This document shows, one piece after another, positions 8,347-18,240 of a DNA stretch of 53,169 nucleotides. Position 1 is the first letter of the stretch. Each line of letters opens with the position of its first letter. This DNA comes from Acidobacteriota bacterium (lineage in GTDB: Bacteria > Acidobacteriota > Thermoanaerobaculia > Multivoradales > UBA5704). The position numbers and the translations under genes are program-made. The notes under the pieces are model-generated. The model was not told the origin of the DNA, ran no database searches, and was given only the letters and a program-made list of their open reading frames with translations. The stretch is taken from contig JBDTZG010000038.1 of NCBI GenBank assembly GCA_040005235.1, positions 1 to 53,169 on the forward strand. Reading direction: 5' to 3'.

Positions 8347-9564
8347 TTAGGGTCCGAATTCGCACAGGTCGTCGGCGCGGATCGCGCGATGGCCGACCCA
8401 GTATCCTCCGGCGTTCATTCGGACCTCCACCCAGGCTTGGGCGTGGGTGAGGTTGGCGTGCCAAAGGTCGAGCATCGCCCAACCAAACGGCGCGTCGGTC
8501 GGCAGATCAGGGCCGCCGACCGCCACTTTCTGGACCGCGCGGGGGAAGGCGTTGCTCTCGCCGATCGAGATCGGGTTTTCCTCTTCGTCGAAAAAGGCGA
8601 CCTGCGCCTCGCCGAGCGGCAGCCAGCGAGGGACCGTGCCGCACGGCCGGGGAGTGGGCGCGGCTTCGCGGGTGTCGCGCCAGACGACCAGCTCCGAGCT
8701 GCCGTCGAAAATGCCACCGGAGAGGATGCGCGCCTGGAAGAGCCCGGAAAGAGGAGCGCGATCGTCACGCGTGTCGAAACCGACGTAACGGCCATAAAAC
8801 GTGTAGTCGCCGGGCCGGAAAAACGTCGGATCGGCGACGATGTGGGCCGCGTTTTCGCTGGCGGCAAATCCGTGGCCCGGATCGAGATCGATCGAGTCTC
8901 CCCAGAGCACGTTCGCGTCGCTTGCGAGGCCCCGGCCGCCGGCTGAGAAATAGAGCGGGTCGGCGGGGGTGTTGCGCGGTGTGCCGACCGACGGCGGGGT
9001 GCAGCGGTTGACGACGTCGACCGTGATGTAGCCCACGGCCAGGCCGTCTCCCGCGCTCGCGGCGCACGCCGGGGGATTGGAGAGTGGCAAGGCTTTGCCG
9101 GTATGGGCGGCGCGGAGGATGTCGACGTCGAGGGCGGAAAGGGCGCCCGCGGCCGGATCTTCGCAGCCATCGGCGACCGGCGTGTCGCGGGAGAACGGCC
9201 CCGTCGGGCTCACCCGGCCACCGGTGCGCGGCAGGTGACCCTGGAACAGATCGCGCACGTTGATGGTTTGTACGTCGAAGCCGGTCAGGTACACGTCGAA
9301 CGCGAGCGTCGGCACGCCCCAGTCGGTCCAGAGCACCACCCGGGCTTGCGCCGCGGCGGAAAACGAGTTGCCGATCGACAGCAAAGTGGTAGCTCCGGCC
9401 GGATGGTCGAGATCGACCTGGAAATAGGGAAACAACAGCGTCGCCGCCGGCTGGTCGTCGAGGCGGCAATTGCCGACGAGCGCGCCGGCCTGGCCCGCGC
9501 GGGCTCCGGCGAGGCATCCCGCGAGGACGCAGAGGCAAAGGGTGGCGCCGCGGATCGATCTCAT
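8347..9564 (-). CDS. Secreted hypothetical protein (PAATLLFPYFxVD-type)
   Basis: Signal-peptide-like MRSIRGATLCLCVLAGCLA…, several Cys, good coding composition; function unknown. Confidence 0.75.
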   Translation of the reverse strand: MRSIRGATLCLCVLAGCLAGARAGQAGALVGNCRLDDQPAATLLFPYFQVDLDHPAGATTLLSIGNSFSAAAQARVVLWTDWGVPTLAFDVYLTGFDVQTINVRDLFQGHLPRTGGRVSPTGPFSRDTPVADGCEDPAAGALSALDVDILRAAHTGKALPLSNPPACAASAGDGLAVGYITVDVVNRCTPPSVGTPRNTPADPLYFSAGGRGLASDANVLWGDSIDLDPGHGFAASENAAHIVADPTFFRPGDYTFYGRYVGFDTRDDRAPLSGLFQARILSGGIFDGSSELVVWRDTREAAPTPRPCGTVPRWLPLGEAQVAFFDEEENPISIGESNAFPRAVQKVAVGGPDLPTDAPFGWAMLDLWHANLTHAQAWVEVRMNAGGYWVGHRAIRADDLCEFGP

Positions 9565-9616
9565 GAAGGTCTTCAAAGGGATTTCGTCGGACGAGTCCGG
9601 GTAGAGTAGGGAACTT

Positions 9617-10552
9617 ATGAGCGAGACTCTAGTGCAAATCGGCGGTGCCGGGCGAGGCGACAAAAATGACCCCCCGGCGCGGCGGCAGGGGCGTCCCGAG
9701 TGGCTGCGCATCCGTCTGGCCACGCCCACTCAGTACCATAAGGTCCGGGAGCTGGTGGACCGGCTCAATCTCCATACGGTATGCCAGGAGGCGCGCTGCC
9801 CCAACATCTATGAGTGCTGGGGCGAGCACGGAACGGCCACCTTCATGATCCTGGGCGACGTCTGCACCCGGCGCTGCGGTTTCTGCGCCGTCACCTCCGG
9901 CCGGCCGGCCGCGGGGGTCGATGGGCAAGAGCCGGAGCACGTCGCCGAAGCGGTCTCGGTGATGGGGCTGCGCCACGCGGTGATCACCTCGGTCGATCGC
10001 GACGACTTGGCCGATGGCGGCGCGAAGCATTTCGCCGAGGTGATCCAGGCGATCCACCGCCGGAGCCCCGGGGTCGCCGTCGAAGTTCTGACCCCCGATT
10101 TTCGCGGCGTGCCCGATGCGCTCGACACCGTGCTCGCGGCCAGGCCCCAGGTGTTTTCGCACAACATGGAGACCGTCCCCCGGCTCTACCGCAAGGCGCG
10201 CCCCGGCAGCCGGTACGACCGTTCGCTCGGCCTTCTCGCCGAGGCGGCGGAGCGCAAGGCGGCCGGGCGTTACCGCGGCACGATCAAGACCGGGATCATG
10301 CTCGGCCTGGGCGAAACTCGGGAAGAGATCGAAGCCACCCTCACCGACATCCGGTCCGCCGGGGTCGAGGTTCTTACACTGGGCCAATATCTCCAGCCGA
10401 CCACCAAGCACCTGGCCGTCGATCGCTGGGTAAGGCCGGAGGAGTTCGCCGAGCACCGTGATTTCGCGCTTTCTTTGGGTTTCGGCCATTGCGTTTCGGG
10501 ACCGCTGGTGCGCAGCAGCTATCACGCCCACGAGCACGTGGTCGCCGGCTGA
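9617..10552 (+). CDS. lipA: Lipoyl synthase
   Basis: CQEARCPNIYEC and CTRRCGFC clusters, C-terminal RSSY. Confidence 0.97.
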   Translation: MSETLVQIGGAGRGDKNDPPARRQGRPEWLRIRLATPTQYHKVRELVDRLNLHTVCQEARCPNIYECWGEHGTATFMILGDVCTRRCGFCAVTSGRPAAGVDGQEPEHVAEAVSVMGLRHAVITSVDRDDLADGGAKHFAEVIQAIHRRSPGVAVEVLTPDFRGVPDALDTVLAARPQVFSHNMETVPRLYRKARPGSRYDRSLGLLAEAAERKAAGRYRGTIKTGIMLGLGETREEIEATLTDIRSAGVEVLTLGQYLQPTTKHLAVDRWVRPEEFAEHRDFALSLGFGHCVSGPLVRSSYHAHEHVVAG

Positions 10553-10720
10553 AATCTGCCGGCTGCCGGCCCAAGGAGTCCGCTGTCACGTTCGCAGGGC
10601 CTGGCGCACCAAGATTAGTGAGCCTTCGTGCGGTGCCCCTTCTCTCCGGTGGCCTCGGAGCCGTTCCGAGCCTCGGGCGAGGTGTCATCGAGCGACAGCG
10701 CCTTCATCGACGGGTTCGCC

Positions 10721-11677
10721 ATGACGCTTGCTACCTTAGAAATCCTTCGAACGCCCGCGCGCATTCCCCGGCCGTCGCTGCGCGACGCCGCGGTTCCGAC
10801 CGAGTTTTTGGGACCTAGCGGCGCAGTCCGGCGGCTGATCGACCAACTCGACCTGGCGAGCCGCGGCCTGGATCCGGTCCTGATCCAGGGAGAGACCGGT
10901 TCGGGCAAGAGCCTGGCGTCGCGCATGTTGTACGAGCTGTGCGGCGCCGAGTCCGGCTGGACGGCGATCTCCGCCGACGCCTTCGACGAGCGCCTCTGTT
11001 CACGCCTGGTCCACGAGCGGCGGGAGTCGTCTCCTACGTTGCTCGCGATCGAAGAGGTGGGCGACCTTTCCGGCACGGCGCAGCGCCGTTTGCTGCGCCT
11101 GCTCTCGTCGCGCGAAGGGCCGCGGGTGATTGCCACCACCAGCAGGGACCTGAACCTCGAAGTCCTGCGCGGCACCTTCTTGCGCGCCCTGCTCGATCGC
11201 CTGGCGAGCTTCGCGGTGACCGTGCCGGCGCTGCGCGACCGGCGGGAAGACCTGCCGACTCTGGTCGAACGAATCCTGGTCGAGCTCGCCACCCGCTATC
11301 GCAAGAGCGTCCGCGGAGTGAGCCCGGAAGCGCTCGACCTGCTGCTCGAACACTCCTGGGGCGGCAACCTGCGCGAGCTTCGGCACGAGCTGGCCCGCGC
11401 CCTGCTCCTGACCCCGGCGGGGGAGGAGATCGCGGCGGCAGCTTTGTCGCCCGACCTCGTGCGCGGGTCTCGCTCCGGGCGGTGGACTTCGAGCCTGCGC
11501 CAGCGCGCCCGCGAGATCGAGCGGAGCCTACTTTCGCGGGTGCTCGAAACCAACGGCTGGAACGTCTCCGCCGCAGCTCGGGAGCTCAAGATCAGCCGGG
11601 TGGGATTGAGCAAGAAGCTGCGGGTGCTCGACATGAAGCGCCCTCTCGCGACCGCGCAGCTTTCGCGGCATCTTTAA
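10721..11677 (+). CDS. Degenerate sigma54-activator-like AAA+ protein with Fis-type HTH
   Basis: GETGSGKS Walker A, LAIEEVG Walker B, WGGNLREL, C-terminal WNVSAAARELKISR. No GAFTGA loop and no N-terminal sensor. Confidence 0.85.
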   Translation: MTLATLEILRTPARIPRPSLRDAAVPTEFLGPSGAVRRLIDQLDLASRGLDPVLIQGETGSGKSLASRMLYELCGAESGWTAISADAFDERLCSRLVHERRESSPTLLAIEEVGDLSGTAQRRLLRLLSSREGPRVIATTSRDLNLEVLRGTFLRALLDRLASFAVTVPALRDRREDLPTLVERILVELATRYRKSVRGVSPEALDLLLEHSWGGNLRELRHELARALLLTPAGEEIAAAALSPDLVRGSRSGRWTSSLRQRAREIERSLLSRVLETNGWNVSAAARELKISRVGLSKKLRVLDMKRPLATAQLSRHL

Positions 11678-11795
11678 GGGAGCTGCGTAAGAACCCGAAG
11701 GAGCGAGGAGGGCGATCGAAAACACCCGCTTGTCCTAGACAGGGGCACGGAGGGATGTTACCCTTCGGCCAGGTCTTCTCGAGGGTCGCGGCAGC

Positions 11796-12329
11796 ATGAC
11801 TTACCTGCAACAACCAGAGCTCCAAGACAGCCTAAACCAACTGCTGCTCGCCTCGCGACCGCGGCTGGAGCGCGTCTTGCGCCATTTCGAGATACCGCCG
11901 GAAGACGCGGAAGATATCCTCCAGGATGCGCAGCTCACCCTGCTCTATAAATGGGAGCAGATCCGCAGCCCGGAGAGCTGGCTGGTCGGTACCCTAAAAA
12001 AGAAATGCATCATGTATTGGCGCAAACGTCGTTCGAGTCTGTGCGATGCCGTCGATACGGCGATTCTGGATCTGGTGGCGACGCCGGTGGCGCCCGATCA
12101 GGAGAAAGCCGAGCTGAGCTTCGACCTCAACCGGGTGCTCGGCAATCTGTCGGCCCGTTGCCGTTCGCTGCTCAAACTGCGCTACGGCTTGGGATACGGG
12201 CCGAGCGAGGTGGCCGAGCAGATGGGCTATCGGCTGTCGAGCATTCGTAAGGTCACGAACCGCTGCCTCGCCGCGCTCACCCGGCAGCTCGTGGCGGTCG
12301 GCTTTCATCGCGAGCCCGAGGGCGATTGA
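11796..12329 (+). CDS. ECF-type sigma-70 factor, paralog 1
   Basis: Region 2 (DAEDILQD…WL) and region 4 (RSLLKLRYGLGY…EVAEQMG); 177 aa. Confidence 0.9.
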   Translation: MTYLQQPELQDSLNQLLLASRPRLERVLRHFEIPPEDAEDILQDAQLTLLYKWEQIRSPESWLVGTLKKKCIMYWRKRRSSLCDAVDTAILDLVATPVAPDQEKAELSFDLNRVLGNLSARCRSLLKLRYGLGYGPSEVAEQMGYRLSSIRKVTNRCLAALTRQLVAVGFHREPEGD

Positions 12330-12331
12330 CC

Positions 12332-13678
12332 ATGATTGAACGACACCCCTCGGCGGATCGGCTGCGGAGCTTCAGCCGCGCGGAGCTGTCCCGGTCTCAT
12401 AACCGCGAGGTGGTGAGACATCTCCTCACGGGCTGCGACCGCTGCTCACAGACTCTCGTCTTCTACGCCCCGCCGGGCATCGGCATCGCCCACCCGGGTC
12501 CGTCGCCGTACGATTACGACACGGCGTTCGCCAAAGCCCGCGCCGCCTTTCTCTGGTCTCGACATGAGCATCTGGAAGAGCAGCAGAATGCGCCAGGCCT
12601 GCTGCATGCTCTCGAAGAGCACCCGTTCGATCGCCAGATCCTGCTGCTGATGAACAGCCGGCGATTCTGGACCTGGCCCCTCTGTTGCCTGCTGCTCGAG
12701 CGTTCGCACGAGCTCGGCTTCCGGGACCCGAGCCGGGCCCTCGATTTCGGCCGGCTCGGCGTTCGCCTGTCGGAACAGTTGTCGGTCGAGTCCTATGGCG
12801 ACAGCCGCGTCGCTGATCTGCGAGCCCGCGCCTGGGCAACGCTTGCCAACGCGCAGCGCATCGCCTCTGACTTCCGCGCCTCGGATCAAAGTTTTCTCCG
12901 TGCCGAGCGCTCGTTGCGCAAGGGGACCGGCGATCCGCTCGAAAAGACGCGTCTGCTGCTGCTCAAGGCGTCGCTCCACGGCGACCAGCGGCGCTTCCCA
13001 GAGGCGATCAAAATGCTCGATCGCGCGCTCGCCATCGCGCGCCGCAACGGCGACGAGTCGCTGATCGCCCAAGCGTTGGTCAAGAAGGGTATCGTTTTCG
13101 GTACCTCCGGCCGGACCGACGAGGCGATCGACTGCCTGCGCGAAGGAGTGCGGGGAATCGATCCGAAAACCGATCCCCGCCTGATGGTGGCGGCGCACCA
13201 CAACCTGATCGTCTATCTGATCGAAGGCGGACAGCTCCAAGAAGCCGTCGCCCTGCTCGAAGCGACCCGGCCGCTTTACGAAGAGCTGGGCGATCGGATG
13301 AATCTGATCCGTCTCCAGTGGCTGGAAGGCATGATCGCCCAGAACCGCGGCCACCTCTCCGAAGCCGAGAGGCTTCTGCGGTCGGTCGGCGCGGCCCTCG
13401 CGGAGCAGGGGCTCGGCTATGACGCCGCGCTGCTCGCTTTCGACCTCGCCGGGGTCTACGCACGCCAGGGGCGGACCGAAGAAATGCGCGCGCTTGCCGC
13501 GGAAATGCTCCCTAGTTTCCAGTCCCGCGAGGTACACCGCGAAGCGCTCGCGGCGCTGATCGTCTTCCAGAAAGCGGCGAAGATGGACCGGGTGACTCTC
13601 GGCCTGGTCCACGAGCTTTCGGATTACCTTCGCCAGTGCCGCAAGAACCCCGGGGTACGGCTCCGGGATTCGGTCTAG
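12332..13678 (+). CDS. ZAS (zinc anti-sigma)-like N-terminus fused to TPR repeats, paralog 1
   Basis: H-x24-HLLTGCDRC followed by TPR-like helices; starts 2 nt after the sigma stop; no TM segment seen. Confidence 0.85.
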   Translation: MIERHPSADRLRSFSRAELSRSHNREVVRHLLTGCDRCSQTLVFYAPPGIGIAHPGPSPYDYDTAFAKARAAFLWSRHEHLEEQQNAPGLLHALEEHPFDRQILLLMNSRRFWTWPLCCLLLERSHELGFRDPSRALDFGRLGVRLSEQLSVESYGDSRVADLRARAWATLANAQRIASDFRASDQSFLRAERSLRKGTGDPLEKTRLLLLKASLHGDQRRFPEAIKMLDRALAIARRNGDESLIAQALVKKGIVFGTSGRTDEAIDCLREGVRGIDPKTDPRLMVAAHHNLIVYLIEGGQLQEAVALLEATRPLYEELGDRMNLIRLQWLEGMIAQNRGHLSEAERLLRSVGAALAEQGLGYDAALLAFDLAGVYARQGRTEEMRALAAEMLPSFQSREVHREALAALIVFQKAAKMDRVTLGLVHELSDYLRQCRKNPGVRLRDSV

Positions 13679-13809
13679 TCGTTCCGGCCCGGCCGACAAT
13701 CTCCGCGAAGAAGAAGCTCGTCATCGCGGCCTGCTCCAGAACCTACCTGGACAAAATGCCCTGCTGCTGATAATGTAACTTTGGTTTACACGCTGTTACT
13801 GCGCCCGCA

Positions 13810-14355
13810 ATGGCCGTCTCCGAACAAGACTCGAGCTCCGAGTCCGCTTTCGAGGATCTAGTCGAGAAGATCCGTCCGCGCCTGCGGAAGATTCTCTCTC
13901 GCTACCGAATTCCGCCTCAGGATGCCGACGACCTGATGCAGGAGGCATTCCTGATCCTGGTTACGAAATGGGGGACGGTTCAGAACCCCGAAGCCTGGAT
14001 CCTTGCAACTCTTGCAAATCGGTGCATCATCTACTGGCGAAAAAGCCGTAGCCGCCTCTGGGACTTGGTCGACGGTGTCGTCCTCGAGCTGCTCGCCGAC
14101 GGCGGTCCGCCGATCCAAGAAGGGATCGACCTGCGGGTGGATCTGGAGGCGTTGGTGGCCAACCTGCCGGATCGCTGTCGATCTTTGCTTCGGATGCGCT
14201 ACCAGCTCGGCTGCACCACCACAGAGACGGCGGAGAAGACCGGATACTGTCGTTCGAGCATCCGCAAAGTCACGCGGAGATGCATCTCCGCTCTAGCTAC
14301 CCAGTTGCTTGGGAAGCCGCTCTCGGCATCGGCGGACACTACCTTCGAGCCCTAG
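13810..14355 (+). CDS. ECF-type sigma-70 factor, paralog 2
   Basis: RPRL…RYRIPPQDADDLMQE, CIIYWR, LPDRCRSLLRMRY, SSIRKVTRRC, shared with paralogs 1 and 3. Confidence 0.9.
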   Translation: MAVSEQDSSSESAFEDLVEKIRPRLRKILSRYRIPPQDADDLMQEAFLILVTKWGTVQNPEAWILATLANRCIIYWRKSRSRLWDLVDGVVLELLADGGPPIQEGIDLRVDLEALVANLPDRCRSLLRMRYQLGCTTTETAEKTGYCRSSIRKVTRRCISALATQLLGKPLSASADTTFEP

Positions 14356-14371
14356 GTTCGCGCGGCGAACC
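14355..14371 (+). terminator. Short hairpin after sigma paralog 2
   Basis: GGTTCG-CGCGG-CGAACC stem-loop with a weak U-tract. Confidence 0.3.
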
Positions 14372-14484
14372 CTTCGATTTAGCTCGATCGTAGCTTTTCT
14401 GTCCCTCTCGACACCCCGAACGGTAACCTAAGTCTTAGAGGTCACGCGGGCCGCTCCCGTGTCCGCATACCAAGGAGAATCATC

Positions 14485-14802
14485 ATGTCTCGACGCATCG
14501 CCATGTACGCACTTTCGCTGGTCATCGCAGGAGCCGTCCTCGTTCCCTCGCCTTCTTTGGCGCAGGCCGACCCGGGTTCCCGGGCTGCGATCGGCGGGTT
14601 CGGTTGGCTCTCGGCGCTTTGGGAGCAGGTGATCGACCGGTTCGTTCCGCTCTCCGACGCCGGAATCCAGATTGATGGCAACGGATTTGCGTCCCAAATT
14701 ACCGCCGAAGCAGGAATTCAGATCGACGGGAACGGGACGAGCTCGGATGCCGGCATCCAGATTGATGGCAACGGAAGAACAGCGCCTACGATCGACTACT
14801 AG
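14485..14802 (+). CDS. Secreted precursor peptide with three [DE]AGIQIDGNG repeats
   Basis: AAGGAG RBS; signal peptide ending …SLA|Q; repeats at 14656-14685, 14707-14736 and 14746-14775 differ mainly at synonymous positions. Confidence 0.85.
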   Translation: MSRRIAMYALSLVIAGAVLVPSPSLAQADPGSRAAIGGFGWLSALWEQVIDRFVPLSDAGIQIDGNGFASQITAEAGIQIDGNGTSSDAGIQIDGNGRTAPTIDY

Positions 14803-14919
14803 CCGACCGGCGGCTCGCCGTCACTCTATTTGTGGGTATCCCCCAAAGCCGACTTCCTGGACTTTGGAAGGGGAAAGGTGTACCTTTGGCTGGAGTCAGA
14901 GATTTGGTGAGCACTGTCG

Positions 14920-15447
14920 ATGATTGCCCTCGACGAAATTTTCATCGAAACGTCCCTGGAGACGTTTCTCGAAGAAGCTCGCCCCCGGCTCAAGATCATT
15001 TTTTCTCGCTACAGAATCCCTCCAGACGATACGGAGGACATTGTCCAGCAGGCGCTGTTGGCCCTGCTGTATCGCCTGGGTTCGGTCAGAGATCCTCAGG
15101 CCTGGTTGATTGGAACCGTCAAGAACAAGTGCCTTCTCTATTGGCGCGATCAACGGCGGAGACTCTATGACTCGGTGGATTCGACGGTACTTGAGTGGAT
15201 TGCGCGCCCTTCGTCTCCCGAACAGGAAGACGACGATGTCCGTCGGGATCTAGATGCCGTGATCGAGACGTTGCCGAACCGTTGTCGCGCTCTCTTGAGC
15301 CTTCGCTATGGACTCGGGTACGAGCCACCCGAGGTCGCGGCCCGCTTGGGTTACAGCGCATCGAGCATGAGCAAGATCACCACGCGCTGTATTGCGATGC
15401 TCACCCGTCAACTTCTTGTCGCAGGTTTGGGTCGGAAAAAAATATGA
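14920..15447 (+). CDS. ECF-type sigma-70 factor, paralog 3
   Basis: RPRL…RYRIPPDDTEDIVQQ, WLIGT…CLLYWR, LPNRCRALLSLRYGLGY. Confidence 0.9.
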   Translation: MIALDEIFIETSLETFLEEARPRLKIIFSRYRIPPDDTEDIVQQALLALLYRLGSVRDPQAWLIGTVKNKCLLYWRDQRRRLYDSVDSTVLEWIARPSSPEQEDDDVRRDLDAVIETLPNRCRALLSLRYGLGYEPPEVAARLGYSASSMSKITTRCIAMLTRQLLVAGLGRKKI

Positions 15448-16841
15448 CGACGAATACCGATCATCCGAGCCGCGAGGTTTTGGAACGCTTCCTTCTGGCC
15501 CAGCTTCCGGCCTCCGAAAGCCGTCGGGTGCTCCGGCACCTCCTCGCCGGTTGCCAGGACTGCCAGACAAACGCCGGGGCCGCCTGGAAAAGCACCCAGC
15601 CGGGCGCGATGTCGCTGCCGCTCGATCCCGCGCTCGACGCCCGCTATGACGAGGTGCTGGATCGCGTGTTCCAGCGGGTCGAGCGGGTCGAGCGGGTTCT
15701 GGCGCGCGAACGCTCCCAGGCCCGCGAGCTTCTGGCCGCCCTTGAGCCGCATCCGATCCAGCGCCAACTCTTGATGCTGCGCAACAGCGCAAAGTTTCGC
15801 AGTCGCGCGCTGTGCGAACAGTTGATCGAAGCGAGCCAGGAGCGAGGCTTCAAAGACCCGGAAAGGGCGCTGGAGCTGGCCGACCTCGCGATCGAGATTT
15901 CGCGCTCCTTGCCCGAAGAGACCCACGGCGCCGACCCGCCGACCCAGCTCGAAAGCCGGGCCTGGGCACAATCGGCCAACGCCCAAAGAATCCTCGGCAA
16001 CCACGACGGCGCGGAGCGTTGCTTCGAGACCGCCGAGGAGCTTCTCGCCGAATCGCAAGGCGTGGGCATCTTCGACGAGGCGCGGCTCTACGACCTCAAG
16101 GCCTCGCTACGGCGCGACCAGCGCCGGTGGACCGAGGCGTTGGAGCTGCACGACCGGGTAATCGGCATCTATCAGTGTCTCGGGCAGCGGCATCTCCTAG
16201 GTCGCGCCTACGCTCAGAAGGCGACCGTGATCTCCGAGGTGGGGGATTTTGCCTCGTCCATCTCCCTCCTGCGCCGGGCGCTCGAGCTGCTCGATCCTAA
16301 GGAAGAGCCGCGGATGTTCCTAGCGGCGCGCCACAACCTAATCTGGGCTCTGTGCGAAAGCGAGCGCTACCGCGAAGCTTTCGCCCTCCTCTTCCACACC
16401 CGTCCGTTCTATCTCCAGGCGGGCGACCGGATGAACCTGCTCAGAATGCGCTGGCTCGAAGGCCAGGTCGCCGCCGGCCTCGGACGCTCCGAGCAGGCCG
16501 AAGTGGCGTTCCTCGAAGTGCGCCGCGCCTTTGGCGAGCTTTCCCTTGACTTCGACGGCGCCCTGGTCTCGCTCGATCTCGCCGTGCTGCTCGCTCGCCA
16601 AGGGCGCTCTACGGAAGTCCAGCGGATCGCCGAAGAGGTTCTCGCGAGCTTCGTCGCCCGCTCGATCCATCGCGAAGCGATCGTCGCGATCACCCTGCTC
16701 AAGCAGGCCGCCGATCAACAGCGCGCCGAAGTCGACCTCGTCCGCCAGGTCTCGTCGTTCCTGCGGCGCTCGCGGAGCAACCCCGAGTTGGCGTTTGAGC
16801 GCGGAAGCGGGTTAGAGGTTCCGCCCCGGGCGGCGAGCTAG
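15444..16841 (+). CDS. ZAS-like + TPR protein, paralog 2
   Basis: ATG at 15444 overlaps the sigma stop (ATGA). H-x24-HLLAGCQDC; GDRMNLxRxxWLEG and HREA shared with paralog 1. Confidence 0.85.
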   Translation: MTTNTDHPSREVLERFLLAQLPASESRRVLRHLLAGCQDCQTNAGAAWKSTQPGAMSLPLDPALDARYDEVLDRVFQRVERVERVLARERSQARELLAALEPHPIQRQLLMLRNSAKFRSRALCEQLIEASQERGFKDPERALELADLAIEISRSLPEETHGADPPTQLESRAWAQSANAQRILGNHDGAERCFETAEELLAESQGVGIFDEARLYDLKASLRRDQRRWTEALELHDRVIGIYQCLGQRHLLGRAYAQKATVISEVGDFASSISLLRRALELLDPKEEPRMFLAARHNLIWALCESERYREAFALLFHTRPFYLQAGDRMNLLRMRWLEGQVAAGLGRSEQAEVAFLEVRRAFGELSLDFDGALVSLDLAVLLARQGRSTEVQRIAEEVLASFVARSIHREAIVAITLLKQAADQQRAEVDLVRQVSSFLRRSRSNPELAFERGSGLEVPPRAAS

Positions 16842-16971
16842 GTAGGAGCGGCGCCAGGCTGTAAGATTAAAGGGTCGCTCCTTGGGAAGGCTTGGCACTT
16901 CCTCGTGCGCAAATCGGTGCGCGGGAGTAGTGTCTGTGTCTTTCTGGGGCGAGAAAAACGGCGATGCTGTG

Positions 16972-18240
16972 ATGACCCCGCGGATCGATTTGGCCGAGCT
17001 TTCTCGGCGCGAAAACGAACAGACAGAGTGGAAAGAGAGCGTCGCGGAGGTCGACGATGTCGTCGCTACCCTCACGGCGTTTGCCAACGATCTCCAAAAC
17101 CTCGGCGGCGGATACGTCGTCTGCGGAGCCAAGGAAGAGAAAGACGCTCAAGGCTTTCCGCGGCTGGTGCAGGTGGGGCTGGTCGCGCTCCGTTTGAAGG
17201 AAGTCGAGCACCAGGTCCTGGCCCGGTGCCGCGACCGTGTGTCGCCCCCTCTTGCGCCGCTCGTCGAAGAGATCCCGATCGACGACGAGAACCGACGTAT
17301 CCTTGTGTTCATTCAGCCTGCTACCGGATCCGCACATACCTTCCGCCGAGGGCACGAGGGCGCAAAGCATTTCGTCAGGGTCAGCCGTTCGACCCTCGAG
17401 GCACGCAACGGAACGCTCCGCGATCTGCTGGCCCGTAAAGGCGCAATAGAGCCTTGGGACCGACGGCCCTGCCTGGGGGCGACCGAGGCGGATATCGACC
17501 TGCTAACTCTCCGAGACACACTCCAGCGCATCGGACTGGTGGACTCCGAAACACCTTCGGAGCGTTTTGTTTCCGACAAAGTCTCGGTCAGCGCGTTCGT
17601 CCCGCCTCTCTTAGCATATGAGGCACTTACGGGTGTGCTGCGGCCTCGTCACTTCGCTATTCTTCTCTTCGGGAGAAGCCCACAGCACTTCATTCCAGGA
17701 GCCGTCTCTTTCTTCTCGAAATATGTAGGCTTCGATCGGGCGGCGCCGAAGGGACAACGGCTGGAGCTGGCCTCGACACTCATCGACCAAATGCGCTTGC
17801 TCTTGCCCGCGGTTGAAGCCGAGGCCCAGACACTTTTCGATAAGGACGACCCAGCGCGTCCCAGCGTTCTCAAGTACCCTGTCAGGGCGATCCGAGAGGC
17901 TGTCGTCAACGCCTTCGCCCATCGCGACTACGAGCTTCCGGATCCGCTGCGGGTGACGGCGTTTCGAGACCGCATAGAGATTTCATCCCCCGGAGCGCTG
18001 GCGTTCGGTGTCGCACCGGGCGATCTCAGCGCGGCGACCGCCGGGCCTCTTTGGCGCAATCAGTCCCTCGCCTGGTTTCTCACCCGCCTCGGGTACGCAG
18101 AAGGCGAAGGCCAAGGGCTCAAGACAATTCAAACGACGCTCCGAGATGCCGGCTGTCCGCCCGCCCAGTACGAGGCCAGTCCGGTTCGCGTGCTCTGCAC
18201 GCTTTGGGCGCATCCTCGGGCGACCGACGCCAAGACCTAA
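16972..18240 (+). CDS. Schlafen/AlbA_2 domain + HATPase_c_4 (RecG C-terminal-like) protein
   Basis: ENEQTEWKE…AFAN…GGYVVCG N-terminus; AIREAVVNAFAHRDY…IEISSPG…RN…GQG C-terminus. Confidence 0.85.
   Translation: MTPRIDLAELSRRENEQTEWKESVAEVDDVVATLTAFANDLQNLGGGYVVCGAKEEKDAQGFPRLVQVGLVALRLKEVEHQVLARCRDRVSPPLAPLVEEIPIDDENRRILVFIQPATGSAHTFRRGHEGAKHFVRVSRSTLEARNGTLRDLLARKGAIEPWDRRPCLGATEADIDLLTLRDTLQRIGLVDSETPSERFVSDKVSVSAFVPPLLAYEALTGVLRPRHFAILLFGRSPQHFIPGAVSFFSKYVGFDRAAPKGQRLELASTLIDQMRLLLPAVEAEAQTLFDKDDPARPSVLKYPVRAIREAVVNAFAHRDYELPDPLRVTAFRDRIEISSPGALAFGVAPGDLSAATAGPLWRNQSLAWFLTRLGYAEGEGQGLKTIQTTLRDAGCPPAQYEASPVRVLCTLWAHPRATDAKT

Follow-up and report, generated by a model that had tools for sequence, protein, structure and literature searches.

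A repeat-peptide gene next to ECF sigma factor and tetratricopeptide repeat genes in an acidobacterial genome resembles a peptide-controlled gene switch

Introduction

This work deals with a small gene at positions 14485..14802 of a 53,169-nucleotide (nt) stretch of DNA from an Acidobacteriota bacterium (GenBank assembly GCA_040005235.1, contig JBDTZG010000038.1, positions 1 to 53,169; lineage Thermoanaerobaculia, Multivoradales, UBA5704); the whole stretch is called here the window. The gene encodes a predicted exported protein with three identical copies of a short peptide core, and it lies between the genes of two extracytoplasmic function (ECF) sigma factors, sigma2 and sigma3, the second of which is followed by the gene of a tetratricopeptide repeat (TPR) protein, TPR2. 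A previous reading of the letters alone (the sequence-only reading) had described a secreted precursor processed into several copies of a short signal peptide. The part of it that concerns an exported, precursor-like protein stands, but the decisive context had been missed, namely the flanking sigma genes and the pairing with a TPR gene, a pairing that recurs about 26 times in the genome. Taking this context into account, the locus of this soil bacterium looks like an undescribed peptide-controlled gene switch of a kind so far known only from Gram-positive bacteria.

Results

A predicted exported protein with three identical peptide cores

The peptide gene lies on the forward strand, starts with ATG and encodes 105 amino acids (aa). 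A Shine-Dalgarno site, AAGGAG, is found at 14472-14477, 8 nt before the ATG, and both this site and an upstream element described below are kept among relatives. Residues 1-28 (14485..14568, forward strand) read as a Sec-type signal peptide, with an MSRR n-region, a hydrophobic core at residues 5-23 (KD(19) value of 1.87) and A-Q-A followed by D29; the AlphaFold2 (AF2) model places a helix at residues 2-19. Residues 41-53 (14605..14643, forward strand) form the segment WLSALWEQVIDRF, modelled as a single amphipathic helix spanning residues 40-52. This W..LW helix stands directly before the first core and corresponds to the conserved pro-region of the protein family introduced below, W41, L45 and Q48 being invariant in alignment A1 and W46 in the wider alignment A2.

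The three cores follow on the same strand: D-AGIQIDGNG at 14656..14685 (14659-14685 without the leading D), E-AGIQIDGNG at 14707..14736 (14710-14736 without the leading E) and D-AGIQIDGNG at 14746..14775 (14749-14775 without the leading D), with spacers of 8 and 4 residues between them. Of the three, the last core shows the strongest conservation in the family, its D94 and G97 being invariant in alignment A2. The signal peptide, the amphipathic segment and the three identical cores had all been pointed out in the sequence-only reading, whose quoted codon strings are exact. Its description of the spacers as unrelated has to be corrected, as the stretch FASQIT is kept in close orthologues.

In the AF2 model of the whole protein (mean predicted local distance difference test, pLDDT, of 53, and below 50 over the repeats) the two helices are the only ordered elements, and the repeats are predicted to be disordered. 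No family of Pfam or NCBIfam matched the protein, including EF-hand and RTX, and the ESM Atlas returned only clusters of Acidobacteriota annotated as 'hypothetical protein', with scores of 0.90 or below. A direct repeat of 55 nt with 80% identity joins 14631-14685 to 14721-14775, which brings the last part of the helix (…VIDRF…) into line with a core (…QIDGN…); ahead of core 1 there may thus be a decayed fourth repeat.

Selection keeps the core peptide

The three 10-residue units [DE]AGIQIDGNG are under strong purifying selection. Within the window the 8-residue cores differ pairwise at 5, 1 and 6 nucleotides, all of them at third positions and all synonymous, and the 15 cores of five orthologous loci comprise 11 DNA versions of one peptide, without any amino-acid change. 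Since the DNA versions vary synonymously while the peptide remains constant, selection keeps the peptide and not the DNA, in agreement with what had been proposed from the codons of the window. The exact core was not found outside this open reading frame (ORF) in the 6.2-Mb genome (3 matches, all within the ORF), whereas plain DGNG occurs 67 times in its six frames.

A search of 5.8 billion proteins returned 13 homologues with identities of 59-93%, all without a name or called 'hypothetical', those carrying a label being Thermoanaerobaculia. The motif G-I-x-I-D-G-N-G is invariant in the first and last repeats across these 13 homologues; lack of repeat conservation in homologues had been named beforehand among the results that would speak against a processed precursor. 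The number of cores varies freely from 1 to 4, and the spacers vary as well: homologue P0010 has 2 cores, and in the more distant P0017-P0019 the last core alone is intact. Orthologous genes of other genera usually have a single core at the extreme C-terminus, which indicates that the three copies are an amplification specific to the genus of the window. Among 201 genomes of the class, the A1 profile matched 3 (the own genome, one of the same genus and one weak match).

A large unnamed family with a DPxG core

Searched against 1.8 billion representatives, the A1 profile found 18 proteins, DPNG forms among them. Those beyond the close relatives are small proteins of the same plan, with cores ending in ...IDPNG, ...IDPDG or ...VDPNG, sometimes flanked by two cysteines. 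The A2 profile, built from the proteins returned by that search, matched 382 proteins at E<=0.01, all of them 'hypothetical' and almost none with a Pfam domain. The consensus unit of the family is [DE]-x-G-x-x-[ILVM]-D-P-x-G, and in many members ...DPNG forms the very end of the protein or is directly followed by Arg or Lys. The search pattern suggested in the sequence-only reading thus turns out to define a large family, with the general form [DE]-x-G-x-x-[ILVM]-D-[GP]-x-G.

Judged by its sequence, the window protein is a Gly-for-Pro ('DGNG') variant of this large unnamed family of predicted exported peptides. It shares with the other members the signal peptide, the W..LW helix, the C-terminal cores (with G for P) and the TPR neighbour. 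One paralogue in the own genome carries a mixture of DPDG and DGNG cores, and in other genera of the same taxonomic family the gene between sigma2 and sigma3 has cores of the forms xRIDPNG, xRIDPDG, xxINPDG or xQIDGNG. The mixed-core paralogue and the DPNG/DPDG genes at the orthologous position tie the window protein firmly to the DPxG family.

A GIQIDGNG core mixed with DPxG[KR]P cores was also observed in two metagenome-assembled genomes (MAGs), one of Chitinophagaceae (L007:489-872) and one of Pseudomonadota (L008:950-1261). The first of these repeat proteins is lipoprotein-like and has no W..LW helix; in the second, a W-rich helix occupies the C-terminus. No TPR or sigma gene was seen near either of them, on contigs too short to show neighbours.

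Peptide genes are paired with TPR genes

Using a hidden Markov model (HMM) of the family, 30 small peptide ORFs were found in the genome of the window, the window peptide being the best match, and phmmer identified 41 paralogues of the TPR protein at E<1e-10 together with 8 sigma-factor paralogues. A TPR paralogue lies within 300 nt of 26 of the 30 peptide genes and within 1 kb of 27 of the 30, against 1.4% under random placement. The window peptide gene is exceptional in lying 651 nt from its TPR gene, because the sigma3 gene fills the gap. A scan for repeats beside the TPR paralogues by regular expression alone had given 12 of 41, one of them spurious, and was replaced by the HMM scan. In genome G061, of another genus, all six peptide matches adjoin TPR paralogues, and in one of them (L021) the order is peptide, sigma1-like, TPR.

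We then turned to the homologues of sigma3, for which 30 loci from 121 genomes of the order were compared. In 15 of the 30 a TPR gene comes after the sigma gene, and among these 15 there are 12 with a peptide gene a short way upstream, so that the order peptide, sigma, TPR of the window recurs in 12 of 15 related loci; none of the 15 loci without a following TPR gene has a peptide gene. It is thus the TPR gene, and not the sigma gene, that the peptide gene accompanies. Within the taxonomic family, the order sigma then TPR is kept in 15 of 17 loci. In other families of the order (L039-L050), arrays of ECF sigma paralogues from the same subfamily, two or three in tandem, were observed with no TPR or peptide gene alongside.

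The sequences of the cores show a further regularity. At their four variable positions, the cores of the own genome have an identity of 0.61 within a precursor (44 pairs) and of 0.20 between precursors (1181 pairs), the window precursor with its three identical cores being the extreme of within-precursor homogeneity. Cores that are alike within a precursor and diverse between paralogous cassettes follow the pattern of ligand-receptor specificity, which would be unexpected for a generic structural repeat. By analogy with known peptide-receptor systems, the peptide gene would be one half of a cassette of peptide and putative TPR receptor, wired in this case to ECF sigma factors through an anti-sigma-like domain.

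TPR2 combines an anti-sigma-like domain with a TPR superhelix

TPR2 (15447..16841, forward strand) is a protein of 464 aa that resembles zinc-binding anti-sigma (ZAS) factors at its N-terminus, and it is considered here a candidate for both anti-sigma factor and peptide receptor. It lacks a signal peptide and any membrane span, its sole hydrophobic window falling inside a confidently modelled TPR helix. The AF2 model, based on 41 homologues (pLDDT of 88.6), begins with three short helices, from which a long connecting helix leads to a TPR superhelix of 8-9 repeats. From these features, TPR2 is predicted to be a cytoplasmic protein with a TPR superhelix of the peptide-binding type.

The best fold matches are LGN/Pins structures (Z about 25, with 295-331 residues aligned). 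Receptors of the RRNPP class come next, with Z values of 22.0 for RapI, 21.3 for RapJ-CSF, 21.2 for the phi3T Rap with its pheromone, 21.1 for apo NprR, 20.1 for NprR with NprX and 19.9 for RapF, the Foldseek E-values of the RRNPP-type matches ranging from 1e-6 to 3e-4. At the sequence level, the TPR profile A3 found kinesin light chain (KLC) as its best match in the PDB (E=2.6e-8), and no RRNPP chain was returned by that search.

Regarding the N-terminal domain, H31, C36 and C39 are invariant in 41 homologous sequences and define the motif H-x4-C-x2-C. A profile of this region (~50 residues) matches the anti-sigma domains of DdvA (E=7.6e-4), RslA (1.3e-3) and ChrR (0.1), with the His and the CxxC in register with the ligands of these proteins apart from a one-residue insertion; a PDB search with the single TPR2 N-terminal sequence gave 0 matches. 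The motif H-x3/4-C-x2-C is present in 20 of the 41 TPR paralogues of the genome and absent from the other 21, and the five motif-less paralogues tested all have a helix-turn-helix (HTH) of the XRE type, three of them above the Pfam cut-off. The paralogues thus appear to join one TPR sensor to two alternative output domains. Only two places of the genome have the anti-sigma form in physical coupling with sigma genes, namely the window and a distant pair on contig C12.

Sigma genes and the conserved block

All three sigma factors of the locus are encoded on the forward strand and match Sigma70_r2/r4_2 of Pfam and TIGR02937: sigma1 (11796..12329, 177 aa), sigma2 (13810..14355, 181 aa), which has no anti-sigma gene of its own, and sigma3 (14920..15447, 175 aa), placed between the peptide gene and TPR2. 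The genes of sigma3 and TPR2 overlap by 1 nt, the ATG of TPR2 lying over the stop codon of sigma3, and those of sigma1 and TPR1 by 4 nt. TPR1 (12326..13678, forward strand) is a second ZAS-like/TPR protein, of 450 aa from a TTG at 12326 or of 448 aa from an ATG at 12332, and is coupled to sigma1. It has no peptide gene of its own in the genome of the window, whereas in G061 (L021) a peptide gene precedes the sigma1 orthologue.

A block comprising a secreted protein, a lipoyl synthase, an AAA+ protein, sigma1-TPR1, sigma2, the peptide gene and sigma3-TPR2 is kept in 5 of 5 loci. The single radical-SAM gene in it codes for a genuine lipoyl synthase (TIGR00510, 369 bits, the cut-off being 310), and what the conserved block holds is regulators; the sequence-only reading was therefore right in finding no tailoring enzyme adjacent. 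The genes after TPR2 differ among relatives, which places the end of the conserved block at TPR2 and the beginning of a variable region behind it. In the window, TPR2 is directly followed by a protein with Schlafen/AlbA_2 and HATPase_c_4 domains (16882-18240, forward strand), and in relatives by an AAA ATPase or a small two-gene pair.

The leftmost gene of the block, in each of the five loci, encodes a secreted protein of 460 aa (8347-9729, reverse strand) without a Pfam or NCBIfam family. It has 6 paralogues in the genome, one of which (C8:60836-62149) lies 1 kb from another peptide/TPR cassette. The AAA+ protein (10628-11677, forward strand), conserved immediately upstream of sigma1, is sigma-54-activator-like and has a Fis-type HTH without a receiver or sensor domain; no convincing -24/-12 promoter was identified near its gene. 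The genome encodes one OppA-type binding protein, and its sole SBP_bac_5 (OppA/DppA-type) gene, at C8:64502-65602, lies about 4.6 kb from the peptide/TPR cassette at C8:57982-59888.

Putative regulatory elements and RNA coverage

The element upstream of the peptide gene (14395..14440, forward strand) consists of TGTC, about 16 nt, CGG-AAC and a short palindrome. It is conserved in 5 loci of the genus, and its TGTC and CGGnAAC columns are kept across 11 loci of several genera. From this conservation, the element is probably the promoter/operator of the peptide gene. Two other elements were observed nearby. The one upstream of sigma3 (14856-14889) reads CCTGGAC... with the near-palindrome AAAGGTGTACCTTT, and its counterpart in other genera, CTGGAC-N-TCCAG, is a clean palindrome, which suggests an operator for a dimeric DNA-binding protein. 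The one upstream of sigma2 (13746-13790) has CCTGGAC and then TGTAAC-TTTGG-TTTACA.

A sigma-70 promoter scan of 11600-17000 found 0 sites, and no ECF-type or sigma-54-type promoter with a consistent spacing could be made out in the conserved upstream elements. The terminator-like hairpins of the same region, including those at 14355-14371 (after sigma2) and 14809-14822 (after the peptide gene), number 5 against 4.4 expected, which is not above chance.

In the soil metatranscriptomes, contigs from three libraries of one study, belonging to a relative of 90-99% similarity, cover the peptide gene (14484-14677), sigma3 and TPR2, and a single contig of 1677 nt starts within the peptide gene, spans sigma3 and reaches into TPR2 (14588-16258). 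Uncovered parts, such as most of sigma2 in runs X5 and X10, were given no weight. Since DNA may be present in RNA libraries and a contig is not equivalent to a transcript, these data hint only faintly at transcription of the locus in soil.

Discussion

Taken together, these features allow us to propose, tentatively and at slightly less than an even chance, that the gene encodes the pro-form of a peptide signal akin to those of RRNPP systems, and that its receptor would be the neighbouring putative anti-sigma factor, TPR2. By analogy with those systems, the precursor would be exported through Sec and cleaved to a short core-containing peptide, for instance DAGIQIDGNG (958.44 Da), the three copies of the core simply tripling the yield. 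The peptide would then be re-imported into the cytoplasm, possibly by the single Opp-type transporter of the genome, and would bind the concave face of the TPR superhelix of TPR2. As a consequence, the hold of the N-terminal anti-sigma domain on sigma3, and perhaps on the orphan sigma2, would change and a regulon would be switched. The specific chain in which an exported multi-copy pheromone of 10 residues is re-imported, binds the TPR domain of a zinc anti-sigma factor and releases an ECF sigma factor is a more doubtful proposition, which we regard as possible.

Several observations weigh against this proposal. The host is diderm, so that a Sec-released peptide of ~1 kDa reaches only the periplasm, and we know of no RRNPP-type system described in such bacteria. 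The likeness of TPR2 to Rap and NprR comes with 9-12% identity, and LGN, KLC, the anaphase-promoting complex (APC/C) and designed TPRs score as high; the resemblance may consequently be generic, and it indicates a fold class and not homology. Concerning the anti-sigma-like domain, the zf-HC2 family of Pfam is not called on the first 100 residues of TPR1 or TPR2, 9 of 16 relatives match it only weakly and below the cut-off, and the zinc motif of TPR2 is one residue longer than HxxxCxxC. There are also ~20 ZAS-TPR paralogues for 8 sigma paralogues, and most ZAS-TPR genes have no adjoining sigma gene. The peptide gene is missing at 3 of the 15 related sigma-TPR loci, and the adjacency of peptide and TPR genes would be equally expected if the regulator merely controlled the peptide gene. 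In the phylum at large, the A2 profile matched 2 of 401 sampled genomes, both of one family, a result that is not evidence of absence since 12 candidates were scored per genome. Finally, the RNA support consists of contigs from libraries possibly holding DNA.

The adjacency argument leads to the strongest competing explanation, namely that the small exported protein is what the neighbouring regulators control and that the TPR domain senses something else. Such a protein might act as an effector in the periplasm or outside the cell, as an antimicrobial or protective peptide, or as a component of the surface or matrix, each regulator driving its own peptide gene. ECF sigma factors commonly drive neighbouring envelope genes, and the same statistics of peptide/TPR adjacency fit this arrangement, as do the conserved promoter-like element with its AAC-containing box upstream of the peptide gene and the predicted disorder of the repeats, which is found in many secreted low-complexity proteins. 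Such an explanation, however, leaves unaccounted for the constancy of the partner, a peptide-binding-type TPR protein with interchangeable output domains, as well as the persistence across genera of a short core at the extreme C-terminus as the sole part kept, and the likeness of the cores within a precursor together with their diversification among ~30 paralogues. We therefore consider it unlikely, while still giving it serious weight.

Another way of dealing with the outer membrane is to suppose that the precursor never leaves the cell: periplasmic proteases would free the cores, Opp would import them, and the TPR anti-sigma factor would read periplasmic proteolysis or the state of the envelope instead of cell density. 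Such a loop would fit a diderm cell, in which Sec export ends in the periplasm, and ECF sigma systems classically report the state of the envelope. It also draws on the same evidence of pairing and fold as the pheromone proposal, and an OppA-type gene is present. On the other hand, ~30 distinct peptide-receptor pairs are hard to justify for a single signal of compartment state, and no protease gene is conserved beside the cassette, which makes this loop improbable in our estimation.

The core sequence by itself also admits a structural role, in which D-G-N-G/D-P-x-G turns of a folded beta-hairpin or ion-binding mini-protein would bind a cation or a ligand of the cell envelope without any processing. 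Both DPxG and DGNG are strong turn formers, the core of the Cys-containing paralogues is bracketed by two cysteines in the manner of a disulfide-closed loop, and lipoprotein-like relatives with DPxG[KR]P repeats are found in the Chitinophagaceae and Pseudomonadota MAGs. Yet each core offers a single acidic residue, the Asp, where DxDxDG or GGxGxD loops have several, and neither EF-hand nor RTX was matched. In addition, the pLDDT stays below 50 over the repeats, and the spacers and the copy number (1 to 4) vary freely, unlike those of a folded repeat domain. We hold such a protein to be very improbable.

Least credible of all is a multi-core precursor of a ribosomally synthesized and post-translationally modified peptide (RiPP), its cores modified by an enzyme encoded elsewhere. 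In its favour are the multi-core architecture and the conserved helix before the cores, a possible leader. It is unusual, however, for a RiPP precursor to have a Sec signal peptide, no tailoring enzyme is encoded in the block shared by the 5 loci (its radical-SAM gene being the lipoyl synthase), and the partner conserved across 26 cassettes is a TPR regulator and not an enzyme.

Returning to the proposal of a peptide signal received by TPR2, the closest known counterparts are the RRNPP cassettes of Bacillota and phages (Rap-Phr, NprR-NprX, PlcR-PapR, Rgg-SHP and AimR-AimP). In these, as here, a gene for a pro-peptide with a signal peptide stands beside the gene of a cytoplasmic TPR protein, the precursor carries the active motif at or close to its C-terminus, and a genome may hold many paralogous pairs, each with its own peptide 'code'. 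About half of the TPR paralogues of our genome share the HTH+TPR architecture of PlcR and NprR, and multi-copy Phr precursors are known in Bacillus. The differences concern the host, a diderm acidobacterium, and the output, a zinc anti-sigma-like domain with an ECF sigma factor instead of an HTH or a phosphatase; furthermore, the cores have 8-10 residues around a D-P/G-x-G turn, and the identity to RRNPP receptors is 9-12%. On paper, the cassette would work like an RRNPP system, but its sequence does not place it in any RRNPP family, and the features of its output domain and its host differ.

The anti-sigma-like side of TPR2 can be compared with the ZAS factors DdvA of M. xanthus (8rlz), RslA of M. 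tuberculosis (3hug) and ChrR of R. sphaeroides (2q1z), with which it shares the N-terminal alignment and a gene coupled to that of an ECF sigma factor. It departs from them in its H-x4-C-x2-C motif, its cytoplasmic TPR sensor, the lack of a membrane span and the partnership with a gene for a secreted peptide. The eukaryotic LGN/Pins and kinesin light chain have in common with TPR2 a TPR superhelix that, in their case, holds an extended peptide in its concave groove; their biology is unrelated, and the likeness shows only that the superhelix is of the peptide-binding type.

As for previous work, the survey made with RRNPP_detector presents RRNPP cassettes as a feature of Firmicutes and phages, and neither 'Acidobacter' nor 'sigma factor' occurs in its main text (PMC10075063). 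The main text of the ECF reclassification gives soluble anti-sigma factors as predicted in 10 groups and places TPRs only in the C-terminal extension of ECF42 and in the FecR-like protein of ECF267 (PMC7826278). We found no report of RRNPP systems in Acidobacteria, and no description of the peptide/sigma/TPR pairing or of bacterial IDPNG peptides in the literature, paper supplements, in which ECF group tables could list the sigma subfamily, having been left aside.

Of all the cassettes of the genome, the copy in the window tells the most, since its TPR genes are physically coupled to sigma genes. Signalling by RRNPP peptides and receptors is regarded as a speciality of Gram-positive bacteria and phages, and control of ECF sigma factors is attributed mainly to envelope-sensing anti-sigma factors in the membrane. 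If the proposed switch is true, a cytoplasmic anti-sigma factor that binds a peptide would join RRNPP signalling and ECF control in a diderm phylum of the soil, and would represent the first RRNPP-style cell-cell signalling in a phylum bearing an outer membrane. Such a genome would operate ~30 orthogonal peptide channels through two kinds of output, HTH and anti-sigma, and its short orthogonal pairs of peptide and receptor would be on offer for synthetic biology. In that case, the search for communication and for sigma-factor control in uncultured soil bacteria would be approached differently.

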